Shown here piece by piece: positions 17,196 through 37,570 of a DNA stretch of 64,000 bases; within the stretch, counting starts at the first letter, position 1, and the number at the start of each line of letters is the position of its first letter. This stretch comes from an uncultured Alphaproteobacteria bacterium (GTDB lineage: Bacteria; Pseudomonadota; Alphaproteobacteria; Rhizobiales; Aestuariivirgaceae), in assembly GCA_963780765.1 (NCBI GenBank), contig CAWADI010000001.1, positions 960-64,959 on the forward strand, written 5' to 3'. Both the position numbers and the translations under genes were made by a program. The notes below the pieces were generated by a model. It was not told the origin of the DNA. It saw only the letters and a program-made list of their open reading frames with translations, and did no database searches.

Positions 17196-17672
17196 ATGCA
17201 TACATTCGACTTTGCTCCCTTCTACCGTTCAACCGTCGGCTTTGACCGACTGTTCTCCGCACTCGACCAGCAGTTCGTGGGCATGGAAGGCCCGGCGCCG
17301 AGCTATCCCCCATACGATATCGAGCGAACCGGCGAGAACGCCTATCGCATCTGGGTCGCTGTCGCCGGCTTCACCGACGCTGATCTCTCAATCGAGGCGA
17401 AGGAGAGCACGCTGACAATCCGCGGCGAGAAGCAGACGAACGACGAGGAGACGACCGGCGACTTGCTCTACCGGGGCATCGCCGCCGCGCGGAACTTCGA
17501 GCGCAGCTTTCAGCTGGCAGACCATGTTGAAGTCATGGGTGCGAGCTTGGAGAACGGACTCCTGCACGTCGACCTCGTGCGCGAGATCCCGGAGGTGATG
17601 AAACCACGGGTGATCCCGATCATGAGCACTCGTAAGGTCCTCGAGGTCAAGCCGACAAAGGTCGCTGCCTGA
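17196..17672 (+). CDS. Small heat-shock protein, Hsp20/alpha-crystallin family (IbpA-like class A)
   Basis: MHTFDFAPFYRSTVGFDRLFSALDQ...YPPYDIERTGENAYRIWVAVAGF...LLYRGIAAARNFERSFQLADHVEV.GASLENGLLHVDL. Confidence 0.92.
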   Translation: MHTFDFAPFYRSTVGFDRLFSALDQQFVGMEGPAPSYPPYDIERTGENAYRIWVAVAGFTDADLSIEAKESTLTIRGEKQTNDEETTGDLLYRGIAAARNFERSFQLADHVEVMGASLENGLLHVDLVREIPEVMKPRVIPIMSTRKVLEVKPTKVAA

Positions 17673-17697
17673 GGCTCCTGCCCGGCGAAATTAAGGG

Positions 17698-17730
17698 AGC
17701 GCCCCAGGTTTTGGGGCGCTTTCGTTTTTC
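17698..17730 (+). terminator. Rho-independent terminator of hsp20
   Basis: AGCGCCCC-aggtttt-GGGGCGCT followed by TTCGTTTTTC, 26 nt after the hsp20 stop. Confidence 0.7.
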
Positions 17731-18061: not shown

Positions 18062-18188
18062 CAAAGCTCCTTTCACTCGGGCGATAGCAAAAAGGCAAAG
18101 CTCCGGGTCCCGGTGCCGTAGCGCGAAGCTACGCGATGCCTCCGTTTCCTGAAAATGCAAAAACCCGCGCGTGGCTCAACGGGTATGA

Positions 18189-18517
18189 AACTTGACGGCT
18201 GACAGCCTATCGAGTCCAGCGGCTGCCTCCTATATGTATTGCACAAAGCATGAGGCGCGGTATGCGGATTGAGATGCGCGTTGAGCGAAACGGCAGGTCA
18301 ATTTTTCGAGCTGAGTATTATACGGAAGTGGGATTAAGTTTCGCCGAATACTCTAAGATGGCTTTGAAGGAGTTCCATCGGCAGCACCCGGAAGTATCGC
18401 TGCTTGATGATGACGTTTGGCTCAAGTTCGATAAGGTTCGATAAGTTATGCCCAAAGGAGCAAAAGGCGAACGGCGAACGACAGACGTGATCGGCAATGC
18501 TGTGAAGGTTATGCGGA
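18189..18517 (+). repeat. Direct repeat copy B (329 bp), partner at 10982..11308
   Basis: Same sequence as copy A with a few substitutions and small indels. It ends about 40 nt before the SagB-like gene stop. Confidence 0.85.
18262..18444 (+). CDS. Small hypothetical protein (60 aa), second copy
   Basis: MRIEMRVERNGRSIFRAEYYTEVGLSFAEYSKMALKEFHRQHPEVSLLDDDVWLKFDKVR. Confidence 0.5.
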   Translation: MRIEMRVERNGRSIFRAEYYTEVGLSFAEYSKMALKEFHRQHPEVSLLDDDVWLKFDKVR

Positions 18518-18558
18518 TAGCTGTTCTATCCGACTTGCTGAGACGGATGTCAGGGGGC

Positions 18559-20301
18559 TCATCGTTCATCCTCCAACTTGTACGCTGGTAACGTCGTGAG
18601 CCGTTTGTCCTCGACGGGGCCACCCACCGTGAAGTGGTAGAAGCTCTGCCAGTCGCGCGAAGAGATGCCGAACACCTCGTGAACGGGATCATCGAAGTAG
18701 CAGCCGATCCCGGTAGAACGAATGCTCGCCTCTTCAGCTTCGAGGTACAGCACCTGGCCTACGAGACCGGCCTCCCAGAAGAGATTTCGATAGAACGCAG
18801 CGCCGTAGGTAACCAAGCTGTCCATGTAGTCGGCGATCATCCCTAGGCTGAAGGCCCCATCTCCCGCGATGTCCTGACCGCAGGAGACGCTCGCGGCCAG
18901 AGCGCGGCAGTCCCCTTCTTTGAGCAGGTACAGCGGGAGCCCACGCGGGCACGACGGAGGGCGCCGCCACAGGAACTCGCGCCGCATCGCTTGCTGGAGC
19001 GGCTCGACCTTCTCCGGATCGCGAGCAAGCGTGTAGAGACCAGGAGAAAGGTCGTTCACGCGGTGCACGAAGAGGCCCAGGTGGATGCGTGGGCGCCAGG
19101 GAATAGCGTCCCACGGCACGGATCGCCCGTCTCGGGTGGGCACGAGACGAGCGAGCATCCGGAAGAACGTCGCCGCGGAAATTGCGGTGGATGCGTCCAT
19201 GCTCACGGCGCTTCTGCGGCCCAGAATGACTTTCTTCGCGGTGAACGCACCGGATCGAACTGGCGGCTCGAAGAGTTCCCCCTCCGAAGGAAACCCGGAG
19301 AAATCTTCGTCGATCGCAGTCGTCGGATTCGTAGTGGCAGCAGCAACCTCGTCGATCACCGGCCAGTCGACGCTGTGCTCGGAACTCAGCACGTCGGCCG
19401 TGCCATACCATCGTGAAGCGGCCCCCTGGGATGCGACCTCTTTGGATAAGCAGAGGCCCCGGTCACTGGCCCAGTTCTCCCGGACGACAACTGCCAAGAG
19501 TTCGGAATGTTCTCGCTCCGCGTCGGCGTAGTCGGCGTCGCGGTTGAGTCCGAGAAGCTGTGACATTGCGTCTACACGGTCGAGGAGGAAGAGTTTCCAG
19601 CCCAGGGCGGCAGCCGCGAAGCGCAGAGTCCCAAGGGCATGACCCACGTCATGTTGGCAGTACCGGAACGCGCGCTCGCCATACTTCCAGGCCTCTCGCC
19701 AATGAATGGACGAGAGCCCCACAAGGAATGAATCCTCCGGAAACGCGGCCATCAGGGCAGTCCAGTCCGACGGGTCAACATCGGCTCGACGCTCGAGACC
19801 GTGTTCCTTCGGTGCGTAGTGGTAGACGCCGGGACGGTCGTGGACGGCGCCAACGGCAGGCAGGAGCGCATATCCCTCCGTCGGGTGCAGGTTTCCGCTC
19901 GAGGGGTTGGCGCGAAGAGACCACGTCGTTTCGTGGAACCGTTTCCACGCGGTCAGCGAGAGGGCATAGCGGAAGAACAGCGAGACGGAGTCAATCGAAA
20001 GCGGGGCTGGCTCCATGCTGTCGGCGACGTAGAGCTGCCAGTATGGAAGTGCTTGCCCCATCTCAGGGAGAGGGAGGCGAACCAGCGACGCTCCCTCGTA
20101 GCGACGGAACGGATCTGGCTGCGTAGCCCAATCCATGTAGCCAACCGACGCGGCGAAGCGGTGGAAGTGGTGCTTCGTCCGTTCGTGATAGGCGACCACG
20201 AGTTCCTCTGCAGACAGGCTGCTCGCTTGCGAGTGGTCCGGCGAAACCTCCGGTTCACCGTAGAGAGGCAGGCGACCTAGCACCATCGACGTCTTCGTCA
20301 C
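18559..20301 (-). CDS. SagB/ThcOx-type (tandem nitroreductase-fold) dehydrogenase, 580 aa
   Basis: YHERTKHHFHRFA...NPSSGNLHPTE in the N-terminal half, and a second nitroreductase-like half ...FYRNLFWEAGLVGQVLYLEAEEASIRSTGIGCYFDD. GTG start at 20301. Intact. Confidence 0.85.
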   Translation of the reverse strand: MTKTSMVLGRLPLYGEPEVSPDHSQASSLSAEELVVAYHERTKHHFHRFAASVGYMDWATQPDPFRRYEGASLVRLPLPEMGQALPYWQLYVADSMEPAPLSIDSVSLFFRYALSLTAWKRFHETTWSLRANPSSGNLHPTEGYALLPAVGAVHDRPGVYHYAPKEHGLERRADVDPSDWTALMAAFPEDSFLVGLSSIHWREAWKYGERAFRYCQHDVGHALGTLRFAAAALGWKLFLLDRVDAMSQLLGLNRDADYADAEREHSELLAVVVRENWASDRGLCLSKEVASQGAASRWYGTADVLSSEHSVDWPVIDEVAAATTNPTTAIDEDFSGFPSEGELFEPPVRSGAFTAKKVILGRRSAVSMDASTAISAATFFRMLARLVPTRDGRSVPWDAIPWRPRIHLGLFVHRVNDLSPGLYTLARDPEKVEPLQQAMRREFLWRRPPSCPRGLPLYLLKEGDCRALAASVSCGQDIAGDGAFSLGMIADYMDSLVTYGAAFYRNLFWEAGLVGQVLYLEAEEASIRSTGIGCYFDDPVHEVFGISSRDWQSFYHFTVGGPVEDKRLTTLPAYKLEDER

Positions 20302-20466
20302 GTGCTGCAGCGCTCGCGGGTGGGCTCCGGTGTGTTTGGCATCGTTCGCTTGCTCCTCTCACATGCAACACGAGTTCTCGCTAGCCGCAGCGAGGGCATT
20401 GGTAGTGGCTGTGAATCCACTCCATCTGACGAGAGAGGTCGGGCAGCGGTCTGCCATCGACGTCTC

Positions 20467-21093
20467 CTAGACCGTGCGCTGGTAGAAGGGTTTCTCGCCG
20501 GCCGCGTGGTCCGTCGTGTCCACGATGTCGACAATCTCCGGTGCCACCCTGCGCACCATGACCTCGAATCCCTGTCGCAAGGTTACGGAAGAGGCAGCGC
20601 AACCCTGGCAGCCTCCGCTCATCGCAATGAAGAGGTTGCCGTGCCGAACGTCGACGATTGAGATCTTCCCGCCATGGCTTGCGATGGAACGATTCACTTC
20701 GCGGTCCAGGAGTTCCTGAACGCACGCACGAATCTCGCCGTCGGTTCGGCCCCGCGCGCCTGCGTTGCGAGGAGCCTCGAAGATCGCGGGCACGCCTGTG
20801 AGCAGCTGCGTCCGGATGGCCGCGCCGATTGCCGATTTCAGCGCCGACCACGCGACACCCGGGTCCTTTCCAATCGTCACCACGGTCTCGGCCATGAGCA
20901 CATGGGAAACGCCCGGAAGGGCGAAGAGCCGCTCGACGAGGGGCGAGCCGGATGCCCGATCCTTGCTGTCGAAAAAGAACGGGCCACCCGGATGCACCGT
21001 CCGGCTGACCGTGAACTTGCACGTGTCGGGGTCGGCCTGCGATGTCTCGGCGCGGATCGTGATCGTCGGGTCGAACGGTAGGACTTCAGACAT
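20467..21093 (-). CDS. Nfu/NifU-type Fe-S scaffold/carrier (Nfu_N + NifU C-terminal domain)
   Basis: The C-terminal domain has the ...IAMSGGCQGCAASSVTL CxxC motif. The ATG at 21093 overlaps the upstream stop (ATGTCTGA), implying translational coupling with the Mrp gene. Confidence 0.85.
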   Translation of the reverse strand: MSEVLPFDPTITIRAETSQADPDTCKFTVSRTVHPGGPFFFDSKDRASGSPLVERLFALPGVSHVLMAETVVTIGKDPGVAWSALKSAIGAAIRTQLLTGVPAIFEAPRNAGARGRTDGEIRACVQELLDREVNRSIASHGGKISIVDVRHGNLFIAMSGGCQGCAASSVTLRQGFEVMVRRVAPEIVDIVDTTDHAAGEKPFYQRTV

Positions 21094-22552
21094 CTTCCAC
21101 GACCCTGGATGCGCCGTGTTCACCGAAGGCCCGCAGGGGCTCGAACGAGTAGATCCCGGTGCTGTGACCGTCGCTCCAGCTGACCTGAATGGCGTAGTTT
21201 CCCACGCTGGTGATCGTGCGCGGGGTCACGTCCGGTCGCACGCTCTTAGGATCCAGGAGCGGGCGCCCGCTCATCTCTTCGACACAGTGGGCGCATCGGC
21301 ACGCCAATCGGAGGTCCCGGACGTCGAAGTCATTCCGCTGGCCGTCCTCCCAGAGCACGGACAGCGTGCGAGCATCACGCCGGCGGAAGCCAATCGCCGT
21401 CGTTCGCGAGCCCGATGGCCGGATGGCACTCTCGACCCAGGCGGGCTCGCCCTTTCCGGTGTCCCAGGTCCACGCGAACGGCTTCAGGCCCGTGGTTGGG
21501 AGTCCCTGGAGGCGGCCAGCCAGTTCCGTGGCGATTGCCAGGTAAGCCATAGCAGCCACTGAGTTCGGCTTCTCCAGGACAATCGGGCGGCCTTTATCGC
21601 CGCCCATGACGATGTCTGCATCCAAGGGTATTGCGCCCAGGAACGGAACGCCGAGTTCGCTGCTCATCCGCTCACCGCCGCCACTGCGGAACACGTCTGT
21701 GCCCTTTCCGCAGTGAGGACACGTGAAGGTGCTCATGTTCTCAATGATGCCGAGGATGGGGACGTGCACCGTCTCGAACATCCTCAAACTGCGGCGGGCG
21801 ATCTTCAGGCTCACGTCCTGCGGCGTCGTCACGATGATCGCACCCGACAAAGGGTAGCTCTGCGCCAGCGTCAGCTGGGTGTCGCCGGTTCCGGGCGGGA
21901 GATCGAGAAGCAGGTAGTCGAGGTGTCCCCATTTGACGGAGCCGATGAACATGGTCAAGTACTTGCCCACCATCGGTCCGCGCAAGATGGCCGGGTTGTC
22001 GTCCCCGGTCAGCATGCCCATCGAAATCACTTTCAGGTTGTGGCGATCGGCGGGGACGATCTTGCCATCCGGGGTGGTCGTGGGCGGCTGACCGGCCGGA
22101 AGAGCCAGCATGCCAGGGATACTCGGGCCGAGAATGTCCGCATCCACGAGCCCGATCCGGCCCCCGATCTGTTGCAGCGCGACCGCGAGATTCACGCTGA
22201 CCGTGGACTTGCCCACGCCGCCCTTGCCGCTTCCCACCGCGATGACGTGGCGGATCCCGGGTAGCTTCTCTGGGCCGGCAGATGCCTGGGACGACGCGCC
22301 AGGCGCGTGCTGGTTGCCGTCGTGCGGGTTGGTCGTCTGCATACCTCGATTCCTTTCTTTCTGACCGCGCTCGGTGGCTGCTCCTACAACTCGACCTCGA
22401 CGCGACGCCGTAACGTGCGACAGCCCGTTGCGCCGGCGGACCCACCGCTCGGCGATCTTTTGAAGGTGCTCCCGAAGCCGTGAAGCGATCGTCTCAAGGC
22501 GGTTCCCATCGCTGCTCGTCGTTACGGCGAGGTCCTCTGCTATGAATGTCAT
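21086..22552 (-). CDS. Mrp/NBP35 (ApbC) P-loop Fe-S carrier fused to a C-terminal DUF971 domain
   Basis: Walker A AVGSGKGGVGKST, CxxC TFTCPHCG, C-terminal LSVLWEDGQRNDFDVRDLRLACRCAHC...YAIQVSWSDGHSTGIYSF (DUF971-like). The 70-aa N-terminal extension does not resemble DUF59. Confidence 0.85.
   Translation of the reverse strand: MTFIAEDLAVTTSSDGNRLETIASRLREHLQKIAERWVRRRNGLSHVTASRRGRVVGAATERGQKERNRGMQTTNPHDGNQHAPGASSQASAGPEKLPGIRHVIAVGSGKGGVGKSTVSVNLAVALQQIGGRIGLVDADILGPSIPGMLALPAGQPPTTTPDGKIVPADRHNLKVISMGMLTGDDNPAILRGPMVGKYLTMFIGSVKWGHLDYLLLDLPPGTGDTQLTLAQSYPLSGAIIVTTPQDVSLKIARRSLRMFETVHVPILGIIENMSTFTCPHCGKGTDVFRSGGGERMSSELGVPFLGAIPLDADIVMGGDKGRPIVLEKPNSVAAMAYLAIATELAGRLQGLPTTGLKPFAWTWDTGKGEPAWVESAIRPSGSRTTAIGFRRRDARTLSVLWEDGQRNDFDVRDLRLACRCAHCVEEMSGRPLLDPKSVRPDVTPRTITSVGNYAIQVSWSDGHSTGIYSFEPLRAFGEHGASRVVEDV
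22514..22552 (-). repeat. Inverted-repeat arm 1 (5' end of the mrp gene)
   Basis: ATGACATTCATAGCAGAGGACCTCGCCGTAACGACGAGC on the minus strand versus ATGACATTCATGGCGGAGGACCTCGCCGCGACGGTGAAC at 24145 on the plus strand (26/28 over the first 28 nt). Confidence 0.75.
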
Positions 22553-22615
22553 GGCGCCTCCCTCACAAGATTGAACAGAGTCACTGGATCGTTGTTTGTT
22601 GATGCGCCGCGCGGC

Positions 22616-23056
22616 TCAGGCCGCCCTCGCCTCTCTGCTCATGGCGCGACGGGCGTCGGTGCAGATGCGCTCGACCATCGAGGCAAATCCGTTCGAGCGC
22701 TGCGGCGTCAGATTCTCGGCCAACCCGAGACGCCGGAACACGCTCTGCGCATCGATCCGGAGAATCTCGTCCGCACATCTGCCCGAGTAGATCGCAAACA
22801 GGATGGCAATCAGCCCCCGCACGATATGGGCGTCGCTGTCGCCCTCGAAGCTGAGTCGCGGGGGCAACCCGGCGCCGCCGGCATCGCAGGCAGTCGCGAG
22901 CCAGACCTGACTGGCGCATCCCCGCACCTTGTTCGCCTCCGTGCGCGCCGCTTCCGCCAGCGGAGGCAGGCTCCGGCCGAGCTCGATCACATAACGATAG
23001 CGGTCCTCCCAATCATCCAGGAGCTGGAAGTCCGCGATGATGTTCTCGAGCGTCAT
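22616..23056 (-). CDS. sufE: SufE-family sulfur acceptor
   Basis: MTLENIIADFQLLDDWEDRYRYVIELGRSLPPL...KVRGCASQVWL (active-site Cys context). Confidence 0.88.
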   Translation of the reverse strand: MTLENIIADFQLLDDWEDRYRYVIELGRSLPPLAEAARTEANKVRGCASQVWLATACDAGGAGLPPRLSFEGDSDAHIVRGLIAILFAIYSGRCADEILRIDAQSVFRRLGLAENLTPQRSNGFASMVERICTDARRAMSREARAA

Positions 23057-23234
23057 GGGTCTTGCAGCTCATCTGCGACAGGGGACACCACGTCGTCGGC
23101 AGCCCTGGCCTCTGCTCCAGTTCCGATGTCGAGTTCGGGAGGCAGCATTGATAGCGAAACCAATCTAATTTTCTGGTCGCCCCTTGTCAATTAGTTTAGG
23201 AAAGCTACTATCCATCGACAAGCAGGAGACGGAA

Positions 23235-23828
23235 ATGAGTGAACGAGCGGTGGCCGAACTGATCGCTCATCTCGGCCGCATCGCCCACGGCGACGGCTTC
23301 GCTGCCGGGCTGACGCCGGCACAATGGACGGCGCTGCGCTACTTCGCGTCGGCCAACCGTTTCTCGCGGACACCCTCCGCCTTCGCGGAGTTCCATGCCA
23401 CGACCCGCGGCACGGCTTCGCAGACCAACGAGAGCCTGGTCGCTCGGGGCTACCTCGTCCGAACCCGGTCGGAGGCTGACGGCCGTAGCACCCGGCTCGA
23501 CCTCACGGATAGGGCCAGAGCCATCCTCGCGGACGATCCGTTCGAGGCCCTGGTGCGGGCGGCGGGCGCTCTTCCTCCCGGCGCCCGCGGCCAGCTAGCA
23601 AACGCGTTGGAGCGCATGCTCGGTCACGTCGCTCGGGAGCGCAGCAAACGGCCGTTTGGCAGTTGCACGTCCTGTGAGCATCTAGAAGGGGAAGGGAAGC
23701 CGCCTTATCGCTGCGGCTGCCTCGGCGAGCCGCTGGCTGAGGCGGAGCTCCAACAGCTCTGCATTAATTTCGCGCCGGGCCGGAACTCGGCGATGAAGCG
23801 CGCCTTTGCCGAAGGAGGGCAGAAATGA
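23235..23828 (+). CDS. MarR-family regulator with a Cys-rich C-terminal extension
   Basis: wHTH core LTPAQWTALRYF...ASQTNESLVARGYLVRTRSEADGRSTRLDLT, then FGSCTSCEHLEGEGKPPYRCGCLGEPLAEAELQQLC. GGAG lies upstream of the ATG at 23235. It is divergent from sufE. Confidence 0.8.
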   Translation: MSERAVAELIAHLGRIAHGDGFAAGLTPAQWTALRYFASANRFSRTPSAFAEFHATTRGTASQTNESLVARGYLVRTRSEADGRSTRLDLTDRARAILADDPFEALVRAAGALPPGARGQLANALERMLGHVARERSKRPFGSCTSCEHLEGEGKPPYRCGCLGEPLAEAELQQLCINFAPGRNSAMKRAFAEGGQK

Positions 23829-24148
23829 GCGCCCTGTCATCGTCCGCCGTCACCATCGAAGACGGAGAGATCACCATTGCGGCGCACCTGCTTGCGCAAA
23901 AGCTGGGGCTGTCCGTCGAGGCGCTGAAAGCGGAGATGCGCCGCGGCTACATCTATAGTCTGGGCGAACAGGGGATCGCCGAGGACGCGGGGCGCACGCG
24001 CCTCACCTTCCGCTACCGCACCCGCTCGTGGACCGTGGTGGTCGAGCCGGATGGCACGCTGATCGAGACCCCCTACGAGAGCACCAAGGGATCGCCAGCC
24101 ACCAGGGATCGAGCGAGTCTGGTGCATCTTTTGAGCAAGGCGTCATGA
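23825..24148 (+). CDS. Hypothetical protein (107 aa; I tentatively associate it with DUF6522)
   Basis: The ATG overlaps the marR stop (ATGA). Its own stop overlaps the ATG of the 30-codon mrp-5' remnant (ATGA at 24145). Confidence 0.55.
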   Translation: MSALSSSAVTIEDGEITIAAHLLAQKLGLSVEALKAEMRRGYIYSLGEQGIAEDAGRTRLTFRYRTRSWTVVVEPDGTLIETPYESTKGSPATRDRASLVHLLSKAS

Positions 24149-24183: not shown

Positions 24184-24271
24184 GTCAGATGTTCGTCTCT
24201 TGGAGAAACGGGCAATTACGTCGATCAGGTTTGTTGAAGTGGTGTTACCGCCTCTTGGAGTTGCGCAGCCC

Positions 24272-25300
24272 ATGTTGGCTCAAATCGTGTCGCACCCACC
24301 CCAGTCTCCCATGGTCGATCCCTTCGGCCGCACGGTGTCGTACCTGCGTGTGTCGGTGACCGACCGCTGCGACTTCCGCTGCGTCTACTGCATGTCAGAG
24401 CACATGACGTTTCTGCCGAAGAAGGACCTTCTGACACTCGAGGAGCTCGACCGGCTCTGCTCGGCCTTCGTCGCCAAGGGCGTCAAGAAGCTCCGCATCA
24501 CGGGCGGCGAGCCGCTCGTGCGCAAGAACATCATCTGGTTGTTCTGGGCGCTTTCGCGACACTTGAAATCGGGCGCGCTCGAAGAGCTCTCGCTGACGAC
24601 CAATGGCAGCCAGTTGCCGAAGTATGCGCAGCAACTCACCGACCTTGGCGTGCGACGCATCAACATCTCGCTCGACACGTTGAACGCCGACCGCTTCAAG
24701 GCCATCACCCGCTGGGGCGACTTCAGACAGGTCATGGGCGGCATCGAGGCGGCCGAGAAGGCAGGGCTCAAGATCAAGCTCAACGCGGTCGCGCTCAAAG
24801 GCGTGAACGAGGACGAGTTCGACGACCTCATCCGCTTCGCCCACGGCCGTGGCATGGACCTGACGCTGATCGAGACCATGCCGATGGGCGAGATCGATGG
24901 CGATCGCACCGACCAGTACCTGCCGCTCTCGATTGTGCGCGCGCGCCTCATGAACCGCTGGACGCTTCAAGACATCCCCTACCGCTCGGGTGGCCCCGCG
25001 CGTTACGTCAAGGTCAAGGAGACGGGCGGGCGCCTGGGCTTCATCACGCCCATGACCCACAATTTCTGCGAAAGCTGCAACCGCGTGCGGCTCACGTGCA
25101 CGGGCACGCTCTACATGTGCCTCGGCCAAGACGACGCGGCAGACCTGAGAACTCCGCTGCGCACGAACAGCGATGACACGCTTCTCTCCCAGGCCATCGA
25201 CGAAGCGATCTCGCGCAAACCCAAGGGCCACGACTTCGTCATCGACCGGCGCACCAAGAAGCCGGCGGTGGCTCGCCATATGAGCGTGACAGGAGGCTAG
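24272..25300 (+). CDS. moaA: GTP 3',8-cyclase MoaA (molybdenum cofactor biosynthesis, radical SAM)
   Basis: [22 protein letters not shown] (CxxxCxxC), [10 protein letters not shown], and the C-terminal [21 protein letters not shown] cluster. Confidence 0.92.
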
Positions 25301-25470
25301 GTCAGGGTGAGTGGCTTTACCGCCGAGCACGCGTGCAGGATGTGCGTCTCGCGCTGGAAAGAAGCTCCCGAAGTGGGCATCGCGCCTCCCGTCACCCTCC
25401 AATTGACGCACGAGGCGGCTCTCGATGGTGTCGATCTTGCCGATCTCAAACGCCACGCGCTGGAACTGTC

Positions 25471-26968
25471 ATGACGGCACAAACCGAAGCAGTCGATCTC
25501 TTTGCATTCGACAACAGCTACGCGCGCCTGCCGGACCGATTCTTCGCGCGGCTTCGGCCCACTCCCGTCGCTGCGCCTCGTCTAGTTCGGCTGAACGAGA
25601 AGCTCGCCTGGCATCTCGAGCTCGATCCGGGGAAGCTTGCCACACCGGAGGGTGTGGAGATCCTCGCGGGCAACCGGGTGCCCAAGAGAGGCGAGCCGCT
25701 CGCCATGGCTTATGCCGGCCACCAGTTCGGGACTTTCGTACCTCAACTCGGTGACGGACGTGCCATTCTTCTCGGCGAGGTTATCGATCGCGACGGCGTG
25801 CGCCGCGACATGCAGCTCAAGGGGTCTGGCCCAACGCCATTTTCCCGGCAGGGCGACGGACGCGCGGCGCTCGGGCCGGTCCTGCGCGAATACATCGTCA
25901 GCGAAGCGATGGCGGCGCTCGGGATCCCGACGACCCGAGCGCTCGCCGCTGTGACGACCGGCGAGACGGTTTGGCGCGAGACGCCTTTGCCCGGCGCGGT
26001 ACTGACCCGCGTCGCGTCGAGCCACATCCGTGTCGGCACCTTCCAGTTCTTCGCGGCGCGCGGGGATGTGGATGCGATCCGGCGCCTCGCCGATCACGTC
26101 ATCGCGCGGCATTACCCAGAAGCAGTTGACGCCGCGAACCGGTACCGCACCCTCCTCGACTTGGTGATCTCGCGCCAGGCAGAGCTGGTTGCGAAGTGGC
26201 TGCTCGCCGGCTTCATTCACGGCGTCATGAACACCGACAACATGTCGATGGCGGGCGAGACCATCGACTACGGCCCCTGCGCCTTCATCGACGTCTATCA
26301 CCCGGCGACGGTCTACAGCTCCATCGATAACATGGGCCGCTACGCTTACGGCAACCAGCCACGCATCGCCCAGTGGAACCTCGCCCGTCTGGCGGAGACG
26401 CTCTTGCCGCTGCTTGCAGAGGACAAGGACGCCGCCGTCAAAGAGGCGCAAGAGGCAATCAACGCATTCGCCACCCGCTTCGAGACGGCCTACGCCGCGG
26501 GCCTCAGTCGCAAGCTCGGCCTGTTCCAACCGCGGCCGGACGATCTGTCCCTGGCACAGGACCTCCTCGAGCGCATGGCCCGCAGCGGCGCCGATTTCAC
26601 CTTGACCTTCCGCCGGCTGTGCGACGCGGCTGCCAGCCCCGACGGCGACGCGGCTGTGCGCAGCCTGTTTACCGATCCGAGCGCCTTCGACGATTGGGCG
26701 GCGAGATGGCGCCATCGACTTGCCGAGGAGGGTGGAGAGCCGAACGAGCGCCGGGCGGCGATGCGTGCGGCTAACCCTGCTTTCATCCCGCGCAACTATC
26801 TGGTGGAGGAGGCGATCTCCGCAGCCGCGAACAATGGGGATTTCTCGCCCTTCGAGAGTTCTGCTGACGGTGCTCTCCATGCCTTACGAGGATCAACCGG
26901 CCTTCGGCCACTACGCCGATCCTCCGCGGCCCGATCAAGTCGTGCACCAAACGTTTTGCGGCACTTGA
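25471..26968 (+). pseudogene. selO: Protein adenylyltransferase SelO (YdiU/UPF0061) with a frame break near the C-terminus
   Basis: MAYAGHQFG...[11 protein letters not shown]...[23 protein letters not shown]. After GDFSPFE the conserved tail [35 protein letters not shown] is in ORF 26720..26968. The junction ttcgagAgttctg (about 26857) is consistent with one extra base. Confidence 0.85.
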
Positions 26969-27284
26969 CCAAGGAAGGGCAGCTCGACGCCGGCATCGTT
27001 TAGGGAGACGGTCATCAGACGCGATGGCCGCCACCCGCTGCTTTCCGCTCAGCACGGGACTTCTCCGCCTGGGTCGGGCTGGCGCGCTCGCCGTGATCCG
27101 GTATGCCAGAATCCACGGCACCAAGCACCGCCCCGTGGCTCACGGCTCTTTGGCGCGTCAGTATCGATTTCAGCAATGGATCCAATTGCGGACGTTGGCG
27201 CGCAAGACCGGCAATCAGTGCCGCTGGAGCCCTCATACGAATCTGGTTCGAAGCGAACCTCAGTCGTCCAGCATCGTTTGCCCG

Positions 27285-28535
27285 TTATTTCACACGAGCC
27301 AATCGGTTTTGCGGCGTTGGTGTGCCGTCAAGCGCATGGCTTAAATGATTGCCGATTACCTCAGAAGCCCGACGGACCGGATCATCGGCCAAATGGGTAT
27401 AGCGCTGCGTGGTCATTGGCGACGCATGCCCGAGGAGCCGTCCGATGATGGGAAGCCCGAAACCTTCACCAGCACCTATACTCGCGTGTGTGTGGCGCAG
27501 ATCGTGGATGCGGACATCATCGATGCTGGCAGCCGAACGGATGTGATCCCAAGGGCGCTTGAGATCGTGGCGCGGCCGCTCCGGGTCGGCTCCTGGAATC
27601 ACAAATCGCCCAAGACGTTTCAGCGACGATAGTACCGAGCAAGCGGCGCCGTTCAGAATTACCGGCTTTCTTCCAGTCTTTGAGTTGGGAAGCAACAGCA
27701 CCCCTCGCTCAAGATCAACCTCGTCCCAACGCAGGTTGAGGATCTCTCGCAGTCGGCAACCGGTTAACAGGAGAAGGCGAATGGCACCAGTCACGTGGCG
27801 AGGATAAACCTCAACGTGCGCTGCCGCCTTGGGGATGTGCTTCGCAGCGACACCTGAGGTCTTGATCATCCAAGGGAGGCCCTGGGTTTCCGCTTGCCGC
27901 AACACGGCGCCCAGGCGGTCAAGTTCACTAGCGCTGAGATATCGTTCCCGCCCCTCCTCCCGAAACCGCTTAACATCCCGCGCTGGATTGCATCCCTTAG
28001 GGAGGTACCCGTTCCGGATACCCCACGAGTAGACGCTGGAGGCATAGGTTATAACCCGATTGGCCCGGTAGGGATGATCGGTCAGTTTCAGGTGGATCCG
28101 GTTGAGATCGCGGGCCATGACGGTCTCGGCCCGCAGGTGTCCGAGCGCAGGAACCACATGCCTGCGCAATGCGCTTTTGTAATCTGCTCGCGTTCGCGCT
28201 TTGAGCTTGGGTCCATGGCCGGCAAGGAACTCGTCAACAAGTTCACGAACGAGAATAGCCGCTCGCTGCTCCCGGCGAGTGCCAGATGGATCGTCGCCAA
28301 GAACAGCCGAACCAAGAACGCGGCGCGCTTCGATGCGGGCCTGCTCAGCAGTAATGACACTAGAACGGCCAAGGGTGTACTGTCGTCTGATACCACCTCT
28401 CCGATAGCGACAGATGAATGTCTTTCGACCACTTGCCTCAACACGTAACCCGAAACCGGGGACTTCGGAGTCCCAGACGAAGTAGCGCGCGCCCTTCGGC
28501 GCCAGCAGGTCAACGGTTCGCTTCGAGATTTTCAT
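27285..28535 (-). CDS. Tyrosine-type site-specific integrase with DUF4102 arm-binding N-terminus (P4-like)
   Basis: MKISKRTVDLLAPKGARYFVWDSEVPGFGLRVEASGRKTFICRYR... and the catalytic region LLLLTGCRLREIL...HDLRHTHAS...LGHASPMTTQRYTH. Intact. Confidence 0.9.
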   Translation of the reverse strand: MKISKRTVDLLAPKGARYFVWDSEVPGFGLRVEASGRKTFICRYRRGGIRRQYTLGRSSVITAEQARIEARRVLGSAVLGDDPSGTRREQRAAILVRELVDEFLAGHGPKLKARTRADYKSALRRHVVPALGHLRAETVMARDLNRIHLKLTDHPYRANRVITYASSVYSWGIRNGYLPKGCNPARDVKRFREEGRERYLSASELDRLGAVLRQAETQGLPWMIKTSGVAAKHIPKAAAHVEVYPRHVTGAIRLLLLTGCRLREILNLRWDEVDLERGVLLLPNSKTGRKPVILNGAACSVLSSLKRLGRFVIPGADPERPRHDLKRPWDHIRSAASIDDVRIHDLRHTHASIGAGEGFGLPIIGRLLGHASPMTTQRYTHLADDPVRRASEVIGNHLSHALDGTPTPQNRLARVK

Positions 28536-28716
28536 GATCGGTGCCTCAACACTCTCTTCTTTACGCCGCCTAGCACAAAAATGGCGTCCATATGGCGTCC
28601 ACCTCGGAAGAAAACTACCACCATTGGCGGGCAATCAGAAGACACAAAGATCGTTCAATATCAATCAGTTGTGCAACGTGAGCCAATATCCGGAAACGAT
28701 GGGAAACGTAATATTT

Positions 28717-34007: not shown

Positions 34008-35420
34008 ATGGCCAAGCCCCGGCCGGAACAGGAACTCGCAGCCATCGAAGCCGTGGTGTGCGCTTATCCCGGCGGCATGACGCTTGCGGAGATCACGGCC
34101 GCGCTGAAGGCGGAGATTCCCCAGCGCACGCTCCAGCATCGGCTCAAGTCTCTGACTGACAGCGGCCGGCTGATCCGGGAAGGGGAGCGGCGCTGGGCGA
34201 AATACCGCCTGCCGCCCATCATCGCCACCGCCGATCTGAAGGCTGGCGATGCGCGTCCTGAGGCGCAGGTGGAGGTTGGCATCCCGCTCTCAAAGGGCGG
34301 GGCCGAAGTGCAGGCCTATGTCCGGCAGCCCGTCGAGAAACGCAAGCCGGTCGGCTACGCCCGGGCGTTCCTTGATTCCTACCGGCCCAATGTCAGCACC
34401 TATCTCGATGACAAAGAGCGCGCGCATCTTCTGAGAGTCGGCACCGCCGAAGCCGGAGACCAGCCCGCCGGCACCTACGCGAAGCAGATCCTGAACCGCC
34501 TGCTGATCGACCTGTCGTGGAATTCAAGCCGCCTTGAAGGGAACACCTATTCGCTGCTCGACACGAAGCGGCTCATCGACTTCGGCGAAGAGGCGGAAGG
34601 CAAGGAGCGGCTCGAAGCACAGATGATCCTGAATCACAAGGATGCGATCGAGTTCCTTGTGGGTTCCGCCGAGGATATCGGCTTCAACCGCTATACGGTC
34701 CTAAATCTCCACGCGATGCTCGCGAACAACCTGCTCGCCGACGAAGCGGCGGCGGGGCGCCTGCGGCGCATCGCCGTCGGCATCGAGCGATCCGCCTTCC
34801 ATCCGCTCGAAATCCCGGCGCTGATCGAGGAGTGCTTCGATCAGATCCTGGCGACGGCGGCCGCGATCAAGGATCCTGTCGAGCAGTCGTTCTTCGCGAT
34901 GGTGCAGCTGCCTTACCTGCAGCCCTTCGATGATGTGAACAAGCGCGTCTCGCGCCTTGCGGCCAACATCCCGCTCATCAAGCGCAACCTCTCGCCGCTG
35001 TCCTTCACCGACGTGCCGCGCAGCGCGTACACCGACGCGGTGCTCGGCGTCTATGAGCTGAACCGCGTCGATCTGCTCAAGGACGTCTTCATCTGGGCCT
35101 ATGAGCGCTCGGCCGCGCGCTATGCCGCCGTCAAGCAATCGCTCGGCGAACCCGACCCCTTCCGCCTGCGTCACCGCGCGGCGCTGCGCGAGCTCATCGC
35201 ACAGATCGTACAGGGGCGCATGGACCGCAAGGCCACGCCTGCATACATCGCGGCCTGGGTGACGGAGAATATTGAGACTCCAGAGCGCGAGCGCTTCCGC
35301 GAACTCGCGGAGCGGGAGCTGCTCGGCCTGCACGAAGGGAATTTCGCGCGCTACCGCATCCGGCCCTCCGAATTCGCGGCGTGGCAGCAGTTGTGGGCGG
35401 CAGCGGGGGCGCGCGCGTGA
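34008..35420 (+). CDS. Fic-family protein with N-terminal wHTH and a degenerate Fic motif
   Basis: 470 aa. The Fic core region carries QPFDDVNKRVSRL (nt 34920-34958) instead of HPFx[DE]GNGRxxR. Confidence 0.85.
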   Translation: MAKPRPEQELAAIEAVVCAYPGGMTLAEITAALKAEIPQRTLQHRLKSLTDSGRLIREGERRWAKYRLPPIIATADLKAGDARPEAQVEVGIPLSKGGAEVQAYVRQPVEKRKPVGYARAFLDSYRPNVSTYLDDKERAHLLRVGTAEAGDQPAGTYAKQILNRLLIDLSWNSSRLEGNTYSLLDTKRLIDFGEEAEGKERLEAQMILNHKDAIEFLVGSAEDIGFNRYTVLNLHAMLANNLLADEAAAGRLRRIAVGIERSAFHPLEIPALIEECFDQILATAAAIKDPVEQSFFAMVQLPYLQPFDDVNKRVSRLAANIPLIKRNLSPLSFTDVPRSAYTDAVLGVYELNRVDLLKDVFIWAYERSAARYAAVKQSLGEPDPFRLRHRAALRELIAQIVQGRMDRKATPAYIAAWVTENIETPERERFRELAERELLGLHEGNFARYRIRPSEFAAWQQLWAAAGARA

Positions 35421-36535: not shown

Positions 36536-37570
36536 ATGGAACAGTATGCAGGAATCGACGTGTCGTTGGAAAGCGCCAGGGTTTGCGTGGTGGATGCGAA
36601 GGGCAAGATCGTTCGGGAAGGGGTAGTGGCAAGCGAGCCCGAGCCGTTGATCGGATGGCTGACAAAGCCGGGTATGGGACTATCTCGAGTTGGGCTTGAA
36701 GCCGGGCCGCTGTCACAGTGGCTTTATGCGGGATTGAAGGCGGCCGGCTTGCCGGCCGAGCTGATCGAGACGCGACATGTGCGCGACGCGTTCCGGGCGA
36801 TGGCGGTGAAGACGGACCGCAAGGATGCGCAGGCGATCGCCCAGTTGATGCGGCTGGGCTGGTTCAAGCCTGTGCACTGCAAATCCGCCTCGGCCCAGGA
36901 GGTGCGAGCGGTACTTGCCGCCCGCCGGCTGTTGCAAAGCAAGCTCTACGATATGGAGATGAGCCTGCGGGGGATATTGCGCGGCTTCGGGCTGAAAGTG
37001 GGCAAGACCACCAGCCGGACCTTCCCGGCGCGGATCCGGGCGCTGGTGGCCGGGCATGAGACGCTCGAGATCGTGGCAAAGGCGTTGCTTTCGGCGCATG
37101 CGGTACTGGTTCGGCAATACGCGGAGCTGGACCGGCGTGTACGCCGCACGGCACGCAGCGATGCCCGGGCGCGCCTGCTGATGACGACGCCGGGGGTCGG
37201 CGCGATCGTGGCGGTGACCTATGTCTCGGCGATCGACCAGACGTCGAGACTCAAGTCATCGAAGAGCGCCGGCGCCTTGTTCGGATTGACGCCCAAACGA
37301 TATCAGTCAGGTGAGATCGACATCAGCGGACGAATATCGAAGACCGGCGACCAGCAGGTGCGCACCGTGCTCTATGAGGCGGCGCACGTCATCCTGACGC
37401 GACCGGTCCGGGCCTCCCATCTCAAGAGCTGGGCGATGCGGGTGGCCAGGCGGGCCGGAATGCGCAAGGCCAAGGTGGCGCTGGCGCGCCGGCTCGCCGT
37501 CATCCTGCACCGAATGCTCGCCGATGGAACGCCATTTAACCCGGAAGCCGCGGCACCGCGGGCGGCATAG
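36536..37570 (+). mobile_element. IS110-family transposase (DEDD recombinase), intact; element ends not definable from a single copy
   Basis: MEQYAGIDVSLESARVCVVDAKGKIV...KTDRKDAQAIAQL...LMTTPGVGAIVAVTYVSAID...FGLTPKRYQSGEIDISGRISKTGDQQVRTVLYEAA. Confidence 0.9.

Follow-up and report, generated by a model that had tools for sequence, protein, structure and literature searches.

Organelles deliver [4Fe-4S] clusters at a late stage with a set of targeting factors: NFU1, BOLA3, GLRX5, IND1/NUBPL and the plant and apicomplexan HCF101. Among iron-sulfur (Fe-S) trafficking proteins, SufE takes persulfide from a cysteine desulfurase, Mrp/ApbC and Nfu carry [4Fe-4S] clusters, and carriers of the Nfu type rebuild clusters that are labile or sacrificed; one example is the auxiliary cluster that LipA sacrifices, which NfuA regenerates in E. 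coli. In place of Nfu_N, the E. coli NfuA carries an A-type N-domain, and in E. coli the genes lie scattered, none with a flavoprotein partner. The domain architecture of HCF101 is discussed in PMC11838916. On the Polaromonas glacier and Antarctic plasmids pE5SP1, pE3SP1 and pE10SP1, suf-nfu-mrp-lipA modules have been described and read as extra Fe-S capacity or protection against reactive oxygen species (Ciok et al. 2018, PMC6015842). Here we analyse a locus at positions 18559-24148 of a 64-kb stretch of contig CAWADI010000001.1 (the whole stretch is called the window), from an uncultured alphaproteobacterium of the Aestuariivirgaceae, in which genes for SufE, an Mrp-type carrier and an Nfu-type carrier precede a gene for a 580-amino-acid (aa) tandem flavoprotein of the SagB/ThcOx type. 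We propose, with a probability of about 0.6, that this locus is an eroded copy of a mobile redox-stress island that joins late-acting Fe-S carriers to thiol-redox proteins and includes a new flavoprotein component.

Like the Polaromonas plasmids, the window carries a mobile Mrp-DUF971/Nfu pair with overlapping frames, at 73% nucleotide and ~69% protein identity to theirs. Unlike the window, the plasmids encode SufBCDS-SufU together with BolA, GrxD and LipA and have neither SufE nor a SagB-like protein; the window has the carriers with SufE and SagB and no match to a scaffold or a desulfurase. The original prediction, made by inspecting the sequence of the window, had presented the pairing of Fe-S carriers with a SagB-like enzyme as an undescribed system. 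The carrier core of this pairing, SUF with Mrp and Nfu, is already known from the plasmids (PMC6015842). What is new is the link between the flavoenzyme and Fe-S/thiol genes: our literature search returned no paper on it, nor on the function of the tandem SagB-like family.

The locus also resembles the organellar set. Its Nfu, built of Nfu_N and a NifU C-domain, matches NFU1, and its P-loop and DUF971 domains match the C-terminal part of HCF101; sister loci add glutaredoxin (Grx) and BolA, and the clients fall in the same classes (lipoyl synthase, aconitase and the MOCS1A/MoaA class). Unlike HCF101, the Mrp of the window has no DUF59, and the module is bacterial, mobile and operon-encoded. We know of no organellar system that includes a SagB-type flavoprotein, DUF255 or SelO. 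With E. coli NfuA, ApbC/Mrp and SufE, the module shares its expected biochemical roles and Fe-S upkeep under stress.

All six open reading frames (ORFs) named by the original prediction were found within 18559-24148 (Table 1), and the Pfam and NCBIfam profile matches on which we based the family assignment of window ORFs returned the families it had named, including those of the 580-aa protein and of the DUF971 tail. SufE, Mrp/NBP35 with DUF971, Nfu and the 580-aa tandem SagB-type nitroreductase are co-directional in this order on the minus strand, and MarR and DUF6522 genes are divergent from them. The Mrp protein matches the NUBPL-type ParA family with E 5e-94 and GBBH-like_N/DUF971 with E 3e-24; it shows a deviant Walker A motif (GKGGVGKST) and a CxxC motif (CPHC), its DUF971 tail bears CRCAHC, and its matches to NF008669 and NF041136 lie below their equivalog cutoffs. 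Compared with the HCF101-type order DUF59/P-loop/DUF971, DUF971 is present and DUF59 has no Pfam match in the window Mrp; in one sister locus (L168), DUF59 is instead joined to the Nfu_N protein. The Nfu protein scores under the NfuA equivalog cutoffs and is thus not an E. coli-type NfuA. SufE matches NF006792 and TIGR03391, below the equivalog cutoff (121.9 vs 160). The Mrp stop and the Nfu start overlap inside ATGTCTGA, the coupling that had been predicted, and the DUF6522 frame, previously a 107-aa ORF of no assigned family, overlaps the MarR stop by 4 nucleotides (nt). A complete SUF, ISC or NIF operon was considered and rejected: SufE, Mrp and Nfu are present, but tblastn over the 64-kb window with a SufS query returned no cysteine desulfurase, and SufB and SufU/IscU-type queries returned no scaffold, in line with the original prediction. 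Sister loci L001, L117, L127 and L029 do contain SufS.

We then asked how often these genes occur together. Scanning metagenomes with the Mrp protein as query gave 80 loci with identities of 77-94%; in 79 of these Nfu directly followed Mrp, always with overlapping frames. The SagB-like gene lay downstream of the pair in 12/80 loci; among the loci in which Mrp reached 80% identity and the sequence continued for 2 kb or more on the downstream side, SagB was found in 8/16 and DUF255 in 10/16. The most frequent companion in the scan was a small Rieske ferredoxin gene directly upstream of Mrp (31 loci), followed by a SufR-like helix-turn-helix (HTH) regulator (21 loci, 20 of them in a ~77%-identity clade without SagB), a Cys-tailed MarR (7 loci), SufE, Grx-rhodanese and SufB (5 loci each), and BolA, SufS, SufU and SelO (2 loci each). 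In the ~77% clade (L142-L167), which never carries SagB, a divergent HTH regulator of ~230-276 aa with C-terminal Cys replaces the Cys-tailed MarR; we take it to be SufR-like, Pfam giving only weak HTH_11/MarR matches.

The gene order of the window is found again elsewhere. SufE-Mrp-Nfu-SagB recurs in L008, L129 and L130 (82-99% identity), and in L131 and L132 with two further genes, orf141 and an NDH2 gene, between SufE and Mrp; SufE lies upstream of Mrp, as in the window, throughout L129-L132. In L117 the order is SufB…SufS, SufU…Mrp, Nfu, SagB, Grx-rhodanese, BolA. L168 carries, on one strand, Rieske, Mrp, Nfu_N/DUF59, …, aldo-keto reductase (AKR), Redoxin, SagB, a 92-aa ORF, Grx-rhodanese, BolA, a 91-aa ORF, SelO, CysJ and CysI. 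A Polaromonas locus (L023, 70% identical) has NDH2, orf141 and MarR on one side and, diverging from them, rhodanese, Mrp, Nfu, SelO, SagB and aconitase, with IspH close by, and L108 has a MarR-DUF6522 neighbourhood like that of the window. SelO is found near SagB or Mrp-Nfu in L023, L026, L019, L168, L137, L141 and L009. The juxtaposition of carriers and SagB, first noticed in the window, is therefore a recurrent one, seen in L008, L129-L132 and L023, in suf operons, and in BolA and rhodanese fusions.

The reciprocal survey, centred on SagB homologues, points to the same set of partners. Fe-S or thiol partners were present within 7-10 kb in 16/32 close-clade SagB contexts vs 1/58 contexts in a ~50%-identical Nitrospira-type clade (Fisher p ~4e-8), a contrast that is tempered by the use of tblastn with proteobacterial-type queries, which may under-detect small proteins of distant lineages. 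The partners comprise BolA adjacent to SagB (L018), Grx-rhodanese following SagB (L016, L017), DUF255 (L016, L019), SelO (L023, L026, L019), Rieske (L015), a nearby glutaredoxin (L173), a full suf operon (L029), and lipA with aconitase (L010). SagB frames overlap or nearly abut four partner types, namely Nfu (4-nt gap in L129 and L130), SelO (L023), Grx-rhodanese (L117) and DUF255 (L105 and L132). Independent fusions were also observed: SagB::BolA (P0038, adjoining aconitase and a CDGSH protein), SagB::rhodanese::ankyrin (P0331) and SagB::aldo-keto reductase (P0244, P0245). Taken together, these contexts indicate that the Mrp-DUF971/Nfu pair is the core of the module and the SagB-like gene a facultative accessory; the flavoenzyme is not obligate, since in half of the contexts examined it occurs by itself.

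Unbiased clustering of ORFs around SagB homologues was tried and gave no functional clue, being dominated by vertical synteny of the Nitrospira-type clade. In that clade (L030-L087), a 284-aa protein with no Pfam or NCBIfam match, a response regulator and a tetratricopeptide repeat (TPR) protein flank SagB in 27-37 loci; the response regulator and the TPR protein have no NCBIfam match, and this context is probably vertically inherited. A Polaromonas sp. P1-6 plasmid (L002, 8001-8839) contains unannotated SagB-like DNA, 75% identical, near a CDGSH gene; the ORF is in pieces of 396 and 251 aa, so this region is probably a pseudogene.

The 580-aa protein itself matches TIGR03605, 'SagB family peptide dehydrogenase', with 85.8 bits vs a cutoff of 78.4. 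Its AlphaFold model (predicted local distance difference test 83.7, predicted template modelling score 0.89) was compared with known structures by Foldseek, which returned the tandem nitroreductase 3EO7 over the full length, then ThcOx, BmdC and McbC. PDB 3EO7 (Ava_2154 of Anabaena variabilis, a 'putative nitroreductase') is the only solved structure with the full-length tandem architecture (Foldseek E 8e-24, template modelling scores 0.62/0.73); it differs in that identity is 20% and the conserved Cys of the family are out of register in the alignment. Residue conservation was scored on 136 sequences, the window protein and 135 cluster representatives. The N-terminal half carries the SagB signature R130-x-x-P133-S134-x-G136 and W205-K206-Y207, of which Lys206-Tyr207 aligns with the WKY of ThcOx; the Lys-Tyr motif has a catalytic role in the dehydrogenases of thiazole/oxazole-modified microcins (TOMMs). 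Residues R130, S134, G136, K206, Y207 and R362-R363-S364 are invariant, the last three, at the start of the C-terminal half, presumably forming the classical nitroreductase phosphate-binding motif, and H39, H44, H139, H161, H167, H221 and H413 are essentially so. C474 is conserved in 132/136 sequences, C534 in 130/136 and C215 in 118/136. Such conservation is suggestive of a specific active site in which thiols are redox-active. A four-Cys Fe-S site in the flavoprotein was considered and rejected: C451 is not conserved outside the close clade, whereas C215, C474 and C534 are. The family is large, with at least 920 clusters at 50% identity (E < 1e-30, exhaustive search). Within the clade to which the protein of the window belongs, sequences from Alphaproteobacteria, Gemmatimonadales, Acidobacteriota, Bryobacterales, Myxococcota and Planctomycetota share 75-97% identity, which implies recent horizontal spread under strong constraint.

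Two traces of lost genes mark the copy in the window. The 488-aa 'Mrp' ORF is a chimera: in homologues the protein begins at the Met of 22342 and has 418 aa, and the first 38 codons of the long ORF (22552-22439) are 79% identical to the N-terminus of orf141 in L132. In L131, L132 and L145, orf141, which has no Pfam family match, is followed by a gene for an NDH-2-like pyridine-nucleotide-disulfide oxidoreductase, and both lie between SufE and Mrp; this flavoprotein gene accompanies orf141 in every case (L023, L131, L132, L145). The stretch 22439-22552 marks the deletion of orf141 and the NDH-2-like gene. The second trace lies between Nfu and SagB. There, L105, L134 and L135 have an intact gene for a 660-aa DUF255/Thioredox_DsbH protein (CHWC) that overlaps the SagB start, and L132, L133, L145 and L116 have a DUF255 pseudogene with an internal deletion. 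By DNA alignment, the spacer of the window keeps only the last ~35 nt of the DUF255 gene; the protein-level search for this remnant was not significant (E 1.5), and the alignment of DNA alone suggests that the spacer is probably the scar of a deleted DUF255 gene. It was also considered as a structured element, which we rejected, its fold being not clearly better than shuffles (z = -1.84). The same trace bears on the SagB start: the ORF extends over 18559-20301 on the minus strand with GTG 20301 as outermost start, but ATG 20286 is the most likely one, because conservation 5' of 20286 belongs to the 3' end of the lost DUF255 gene. Given the orf141-NDH2 scar and the probable DUF255 scar, the operon of the window derives, by streamlining or erosion, from a larger mosaic island. 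The original prediction of a self-contained orphan four-gene system does not survive this comparison, the locus being an eroded island fragment in which SagB is facultative; its statement that all genes are intact is correct for the six genes, while of the internal spacers one is a deletion scar and the other, before SagB, probably so.

The island is also mobile. Window positions 18186-22955 are 99.1% identical to 7347-12113 of L008, a contig of an alphaproteobacterial metagenome-assembled genome (MAG), with rearranged flanks: in the L008 block sufE is 5'-truncated, and the P450 and Crp segments of the window stand in another order. The SagB gene of the window is 97% identical to a copy in a Gemmatimonadales MAG. 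On the chromosome of a cultured isolate, Nitrobacteraceae bacterium AZCC 2146 (L175 8472-10627), a bare Rieske-Mrp-DUF971-Nfu unit lies between IS110 and DDE transposases. These comparisons argue for a horizontally mobile mosaic island, of which the window would hold an eroded copy. Downstream of the module, the window contains a tyrosine integrase (27285-28634), a Fic/DOC protein (34008-35420) and an IS110 transposase (36536-37570), and at 28-32 kb the GC content is down to 0.53-0.55, which would fit a mosaic genomic island.

The layout of the locus gives some indications about its control. Within the 178 nt between sufE and marR, divergent sigma-70-like hexamers overlap one another at 23162-23211 (10/12 and 9/12 matches), and short inverted repeats lie at 23183-23222. 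No terminator-like site was predicted from sufE to the SagB end, the Nfu-SagB spacer included, and an Rfam scan of the whole window found only a tRNA-Arg, with no riboswitch or leader. All four minus-strand genes are probably transcribed from the 178-nt spacer. The regulator matches MarR_2 with E 3e-10 and most likely starts at ATG 23235. The Cys-rich tail that the original prediction had pointed out, FGxCxxC...C...LC, has its four Cys conserved in 7/7 homologues beside Mrp-Nfu modules, in either orientation, making this MarR a plausible candidate for a cluster-, metal- or thiol-based sensor. When four spacers of the sufE/marR type were compared for a common MarR operator, only weak, inconsistent inverted repeats emerged, and the idea was dropped. 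A strong bidirectional terminator-like hairpin at 17695-17723 (13 bp, 8 GC), just past the Hsp20 gene (17196-17672), is the first minus-strand terminator-like site past the SagB operon, ~840 nt beyond the SagB stop.

Table 1 Features of the module and its flank, with positions in the window.
Feature	Position	Strand	Family matches and remarks
SagB/ThcOx-type tandem nitroreductase-fold flavoprotein	18559..20286	-	PF00881; TIGR03605 above cutoff
Nfu-SagB spacer	20302..20466	-	Probable residual scar of deleted DUF255 (thioredoxin-like, CHWC) gene
Nfu, NFU1-type [4Fe-4S] carrier	20467..21093	-	Nfu_N PF08712 and NifU C-domain PF01106; CQGC
Mrp/NBP35/ApbC-type P-loop Fe-S carrier with C-terminal DUF971/GBBH-like_N	21086..22342	-	PF10609, PF06155
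orf141 5' remnant, 38 codons	22439..22552	-	In-frame fusion to Mrp leader
SufE sulfur acceptor	22616..23056	-	PF02657, E 2e-45; active-site Cys in RGCASQVW
sufE/marR divergent spacer, putative control region	23057..23234	.	Promoter-like hexamers, short inverted repeats
MarR-family regulator, Cys tail	23235..23828	+	PF12802
DUF6522 protein	23825..24148	+	PF20132, E 6e-21
MoaA (GTP 3',8-cyclase; radical S-adenosylmethionine enzyme, two [4Fe-4S])	24200..25300	+	TIGR02666, 367 bits vs cutoff 284
SelO/YdiU protein adenylyltransferase	25333..27003	+	NF000658, 585 bits
Tyrosine integrase flanking module	27285..28634	-	PF00589 and PF13356

MoaA, SelO/YdiU and the tyrosine integrase adjoin the module on one side, and Hsp20 and a Crp-family gene on the other. 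The SelO/YdiU gene is frameshifted near 26870, leaving the C-terminal ~30 residues (with the conserved …TFCGT) in another frame (26720-26968); the gene may truly be a pseudogene, or the frameshift may be an artefact of long-read assembly.

We picture the following mechanism. Oxidative, electrophile or iron stress would cause MarR to release the operon; SufE would pass sulfur from the host desulfurase to host scaffolds, and Mrp and Nfu, relying on that desulfurase and scaffold, would carry or re-insert [4Fe-4S] clusters into labile clients. The block would thus act as an inducible add-on that raises late-stage cluster delivery or repair, and the varying passenger enzymes, MoaA here and LipA, aconitase, IspH, GltB or CysI elsewhere, may be its clients or back-up copies. 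The SagB-like protein would not form azoles here; as an accessory, it would provide FMN-dependent redox or electron transfer serving thiol, persulfide or cluster chemistry, usually partnered by the DUF255 CxxC protein. It probably acts on generic species or host proteins rather than on one dedicated partner, since its partner genes differ from locus to locus and it is frequently found by itself. A redox-stress Fe-S salvage unit, one of two hypotheses in the original prediction, fits this neighbourhood best. A more specific role is rather unlikely in our estimate: the tandem SagB-like family would be an unrecognised redox component of Fe-S trafficking that, with DUF255 and possibly SelO, serves as electron donor or acceptor, reducing carrier or persulfide sulfur or driving reductive [2Fe-2S] to [4Fe-4S] coupling on Nfu/Mrp. 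To our knowledge, no dedicated enzyme is known for this step in SUF-type or accessory carrier systems. SelO AMPylates redox proteins, and in an extreme variant, hardly credible at best, SelO would AMPylate a residue and the SagB-like enzyme oxidise the product, a protein-modifying pair analogous to YcaO/SagB.

Several observations weigh against a redox-stress island built around the carriers and the flavoenzyme. Most Mrp-Nfu loci, among them all 26 at ~77% identity, have no SagB-like gene, and about half of the close-clade SagB genes stand alone, often by transposases or insertion sequences (IS), integrases or a Trb type IV secretion system (T4SS), so that SagB needs no dedicated partner. DUF255, its usual partner, has no copy in the module of the window. 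The two deletion scars and the frameshifted SelO suggest that selection may have ceased to act on part of the window copy. The SagB-like sequence reveals no NAD(P)H site, metal site or substrate, and co-transcription and MarR control are suggested by spacing and orientation only. The main rival, possible but doubtful, takes up several of these points: the SagB-like protein would be co-travelling stress cargo, a general detoxifying flavin reductase for quinones, nitro compounds or electrophiles that shares regulation and mobile vehicles with the Fe-S genes. NfsA (SoxRS regulon) and MhqN/NfrA (under the MarR-type MhqR/YodB) are detoxifying reductases of that kind. Solitary SagB genes amid IS, integrase and T4SS agree with it, as do the MarR-type regulators that go with the module and neighbours such as an AKR related to methylglyoxal reductase and a peroxiredoxin-type Redoxin; moreover, a short soil enzyme of the SagB family reduces metronidazole (PMC10055417). 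Simple cargo, however, would not readily account for fusions of SagB to BolA and rhodanese, for frames overlapping those of Nfu, Grx-rhodanese, SelO and DUF255, or for a position in the middle rather than at the edge of the Fe-S operons L117 and L168, and the conservation of the protein between phyla (75-97% identity, many His and Cys invariant) speaks for an enzyme constrained to a specific task and against a promiscuous one.

A route dedicated to the maturation or repair of a single client, MoaA, had been the other hypothesis of the original prediction. The idea has some appeal: in the window moaA comes right after marR and the DUF6522 ORF, at 1.1 kb from sufE, and a true moaA (TIGR02666 above cutoff) immediately follows Nfu in L140 and lies close to Mrp-Nfu in L147 and L161. 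Yet moaA occurs in only ~5/81 Mrp-Nfu loci, the near-identical L008 block has no adjoining moaA, and sister loci carry other Fe-S enzymes instead: lipA (L001, L010), aconitase (L023, L010, L170), ispH (L023), gltB (L092) and cysJI (L168). We consider such a route improbable, and MoaA is likely both a passenger and a client enzyme in the window. Directly downstream of the carrier module lie the glutamate synthase large subunit in L092 (5051-6559) and the CysJ-CysI sulfite reductase in L168 (12604-15770), which are Fe-S or siroheme enzymes. It is very improbable that the genes were joined accidentally by rearrangement in a mosaic island and no longer cooperate: the two scars, the chimeric Mrp leader, the frameshifted SelO and flanks rearranged relative to L008 would suit a decaying remnant, but the four ORFs are intact with their catalytic motifs kept, the same order is found in independent loci at 70-99% identity, and the frame breaks of the neighbours may be long-read assembly errors. 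Finally, the 580-aa protein could be taken for an azoline dehydrogenase of a thiazole/oxazole peptide pathway, tailoring a ribosomally synthesised and post-translationally modified peptide (RiPP), and indeed it scores above the TIGR03605 cutoff and shares the nitroreductase fold, the R-x-x-P-S-x-G and the Lys-Tyr motifs with the TOMM, cyanobactin and nonribosomal peptide synthetase azoline dehydrogenases (SagB, McbC, ThcOx, BmdC). Unlike these, its fold is duplicated in one chain, it has its own invariant Cys/His set, its recurrent neighbours are Fe-S and thiol proteins, and no cyclodehydratase was found. No YcaO, E1-like or ocin-ThiF gene is present among the ~28 window ORFs scanned with Pfam, which include all the longest candidate genes, nor YcaO or E1-like genes in the Pfam-annotated SagB neighbourhoods; no search for a precursor peptide was made. 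The RiPP reading is close to refuted, and the SagB-like protein should not be classed as a RiPP enzyme: despite the shared fold and motifs, no YcaO or E1-like cyclodehydratase, the defining genomic companion, was seen among the genes examined.

What gives these findings value is not the locus of the window as such but the lead, open to testing, that they offer on a large family of orphan flavoenzymes. Conserved neighbourhoods, overlapping frames and fusions (to BolA, rhodanese and aldo-keto reductase) are the types of evidence that usually predict function. Accessory Fe-S carrier and repair modules are known, but the source of their electrons and thiol reducing power is poorly defined. The locus and its relatives point to one abundant, unusually conserved and mobile flavoenzyme family as a recurrent member of these modules. 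The 'SagB family' would thereby gain a role outside peptide natural products, which would affect automated annotation and RiPP genome mining. As it passes from phylum to phylum among soil and glacier bacteria, the module may be a transferable trait of oxidative- or cold-stress tolerance.

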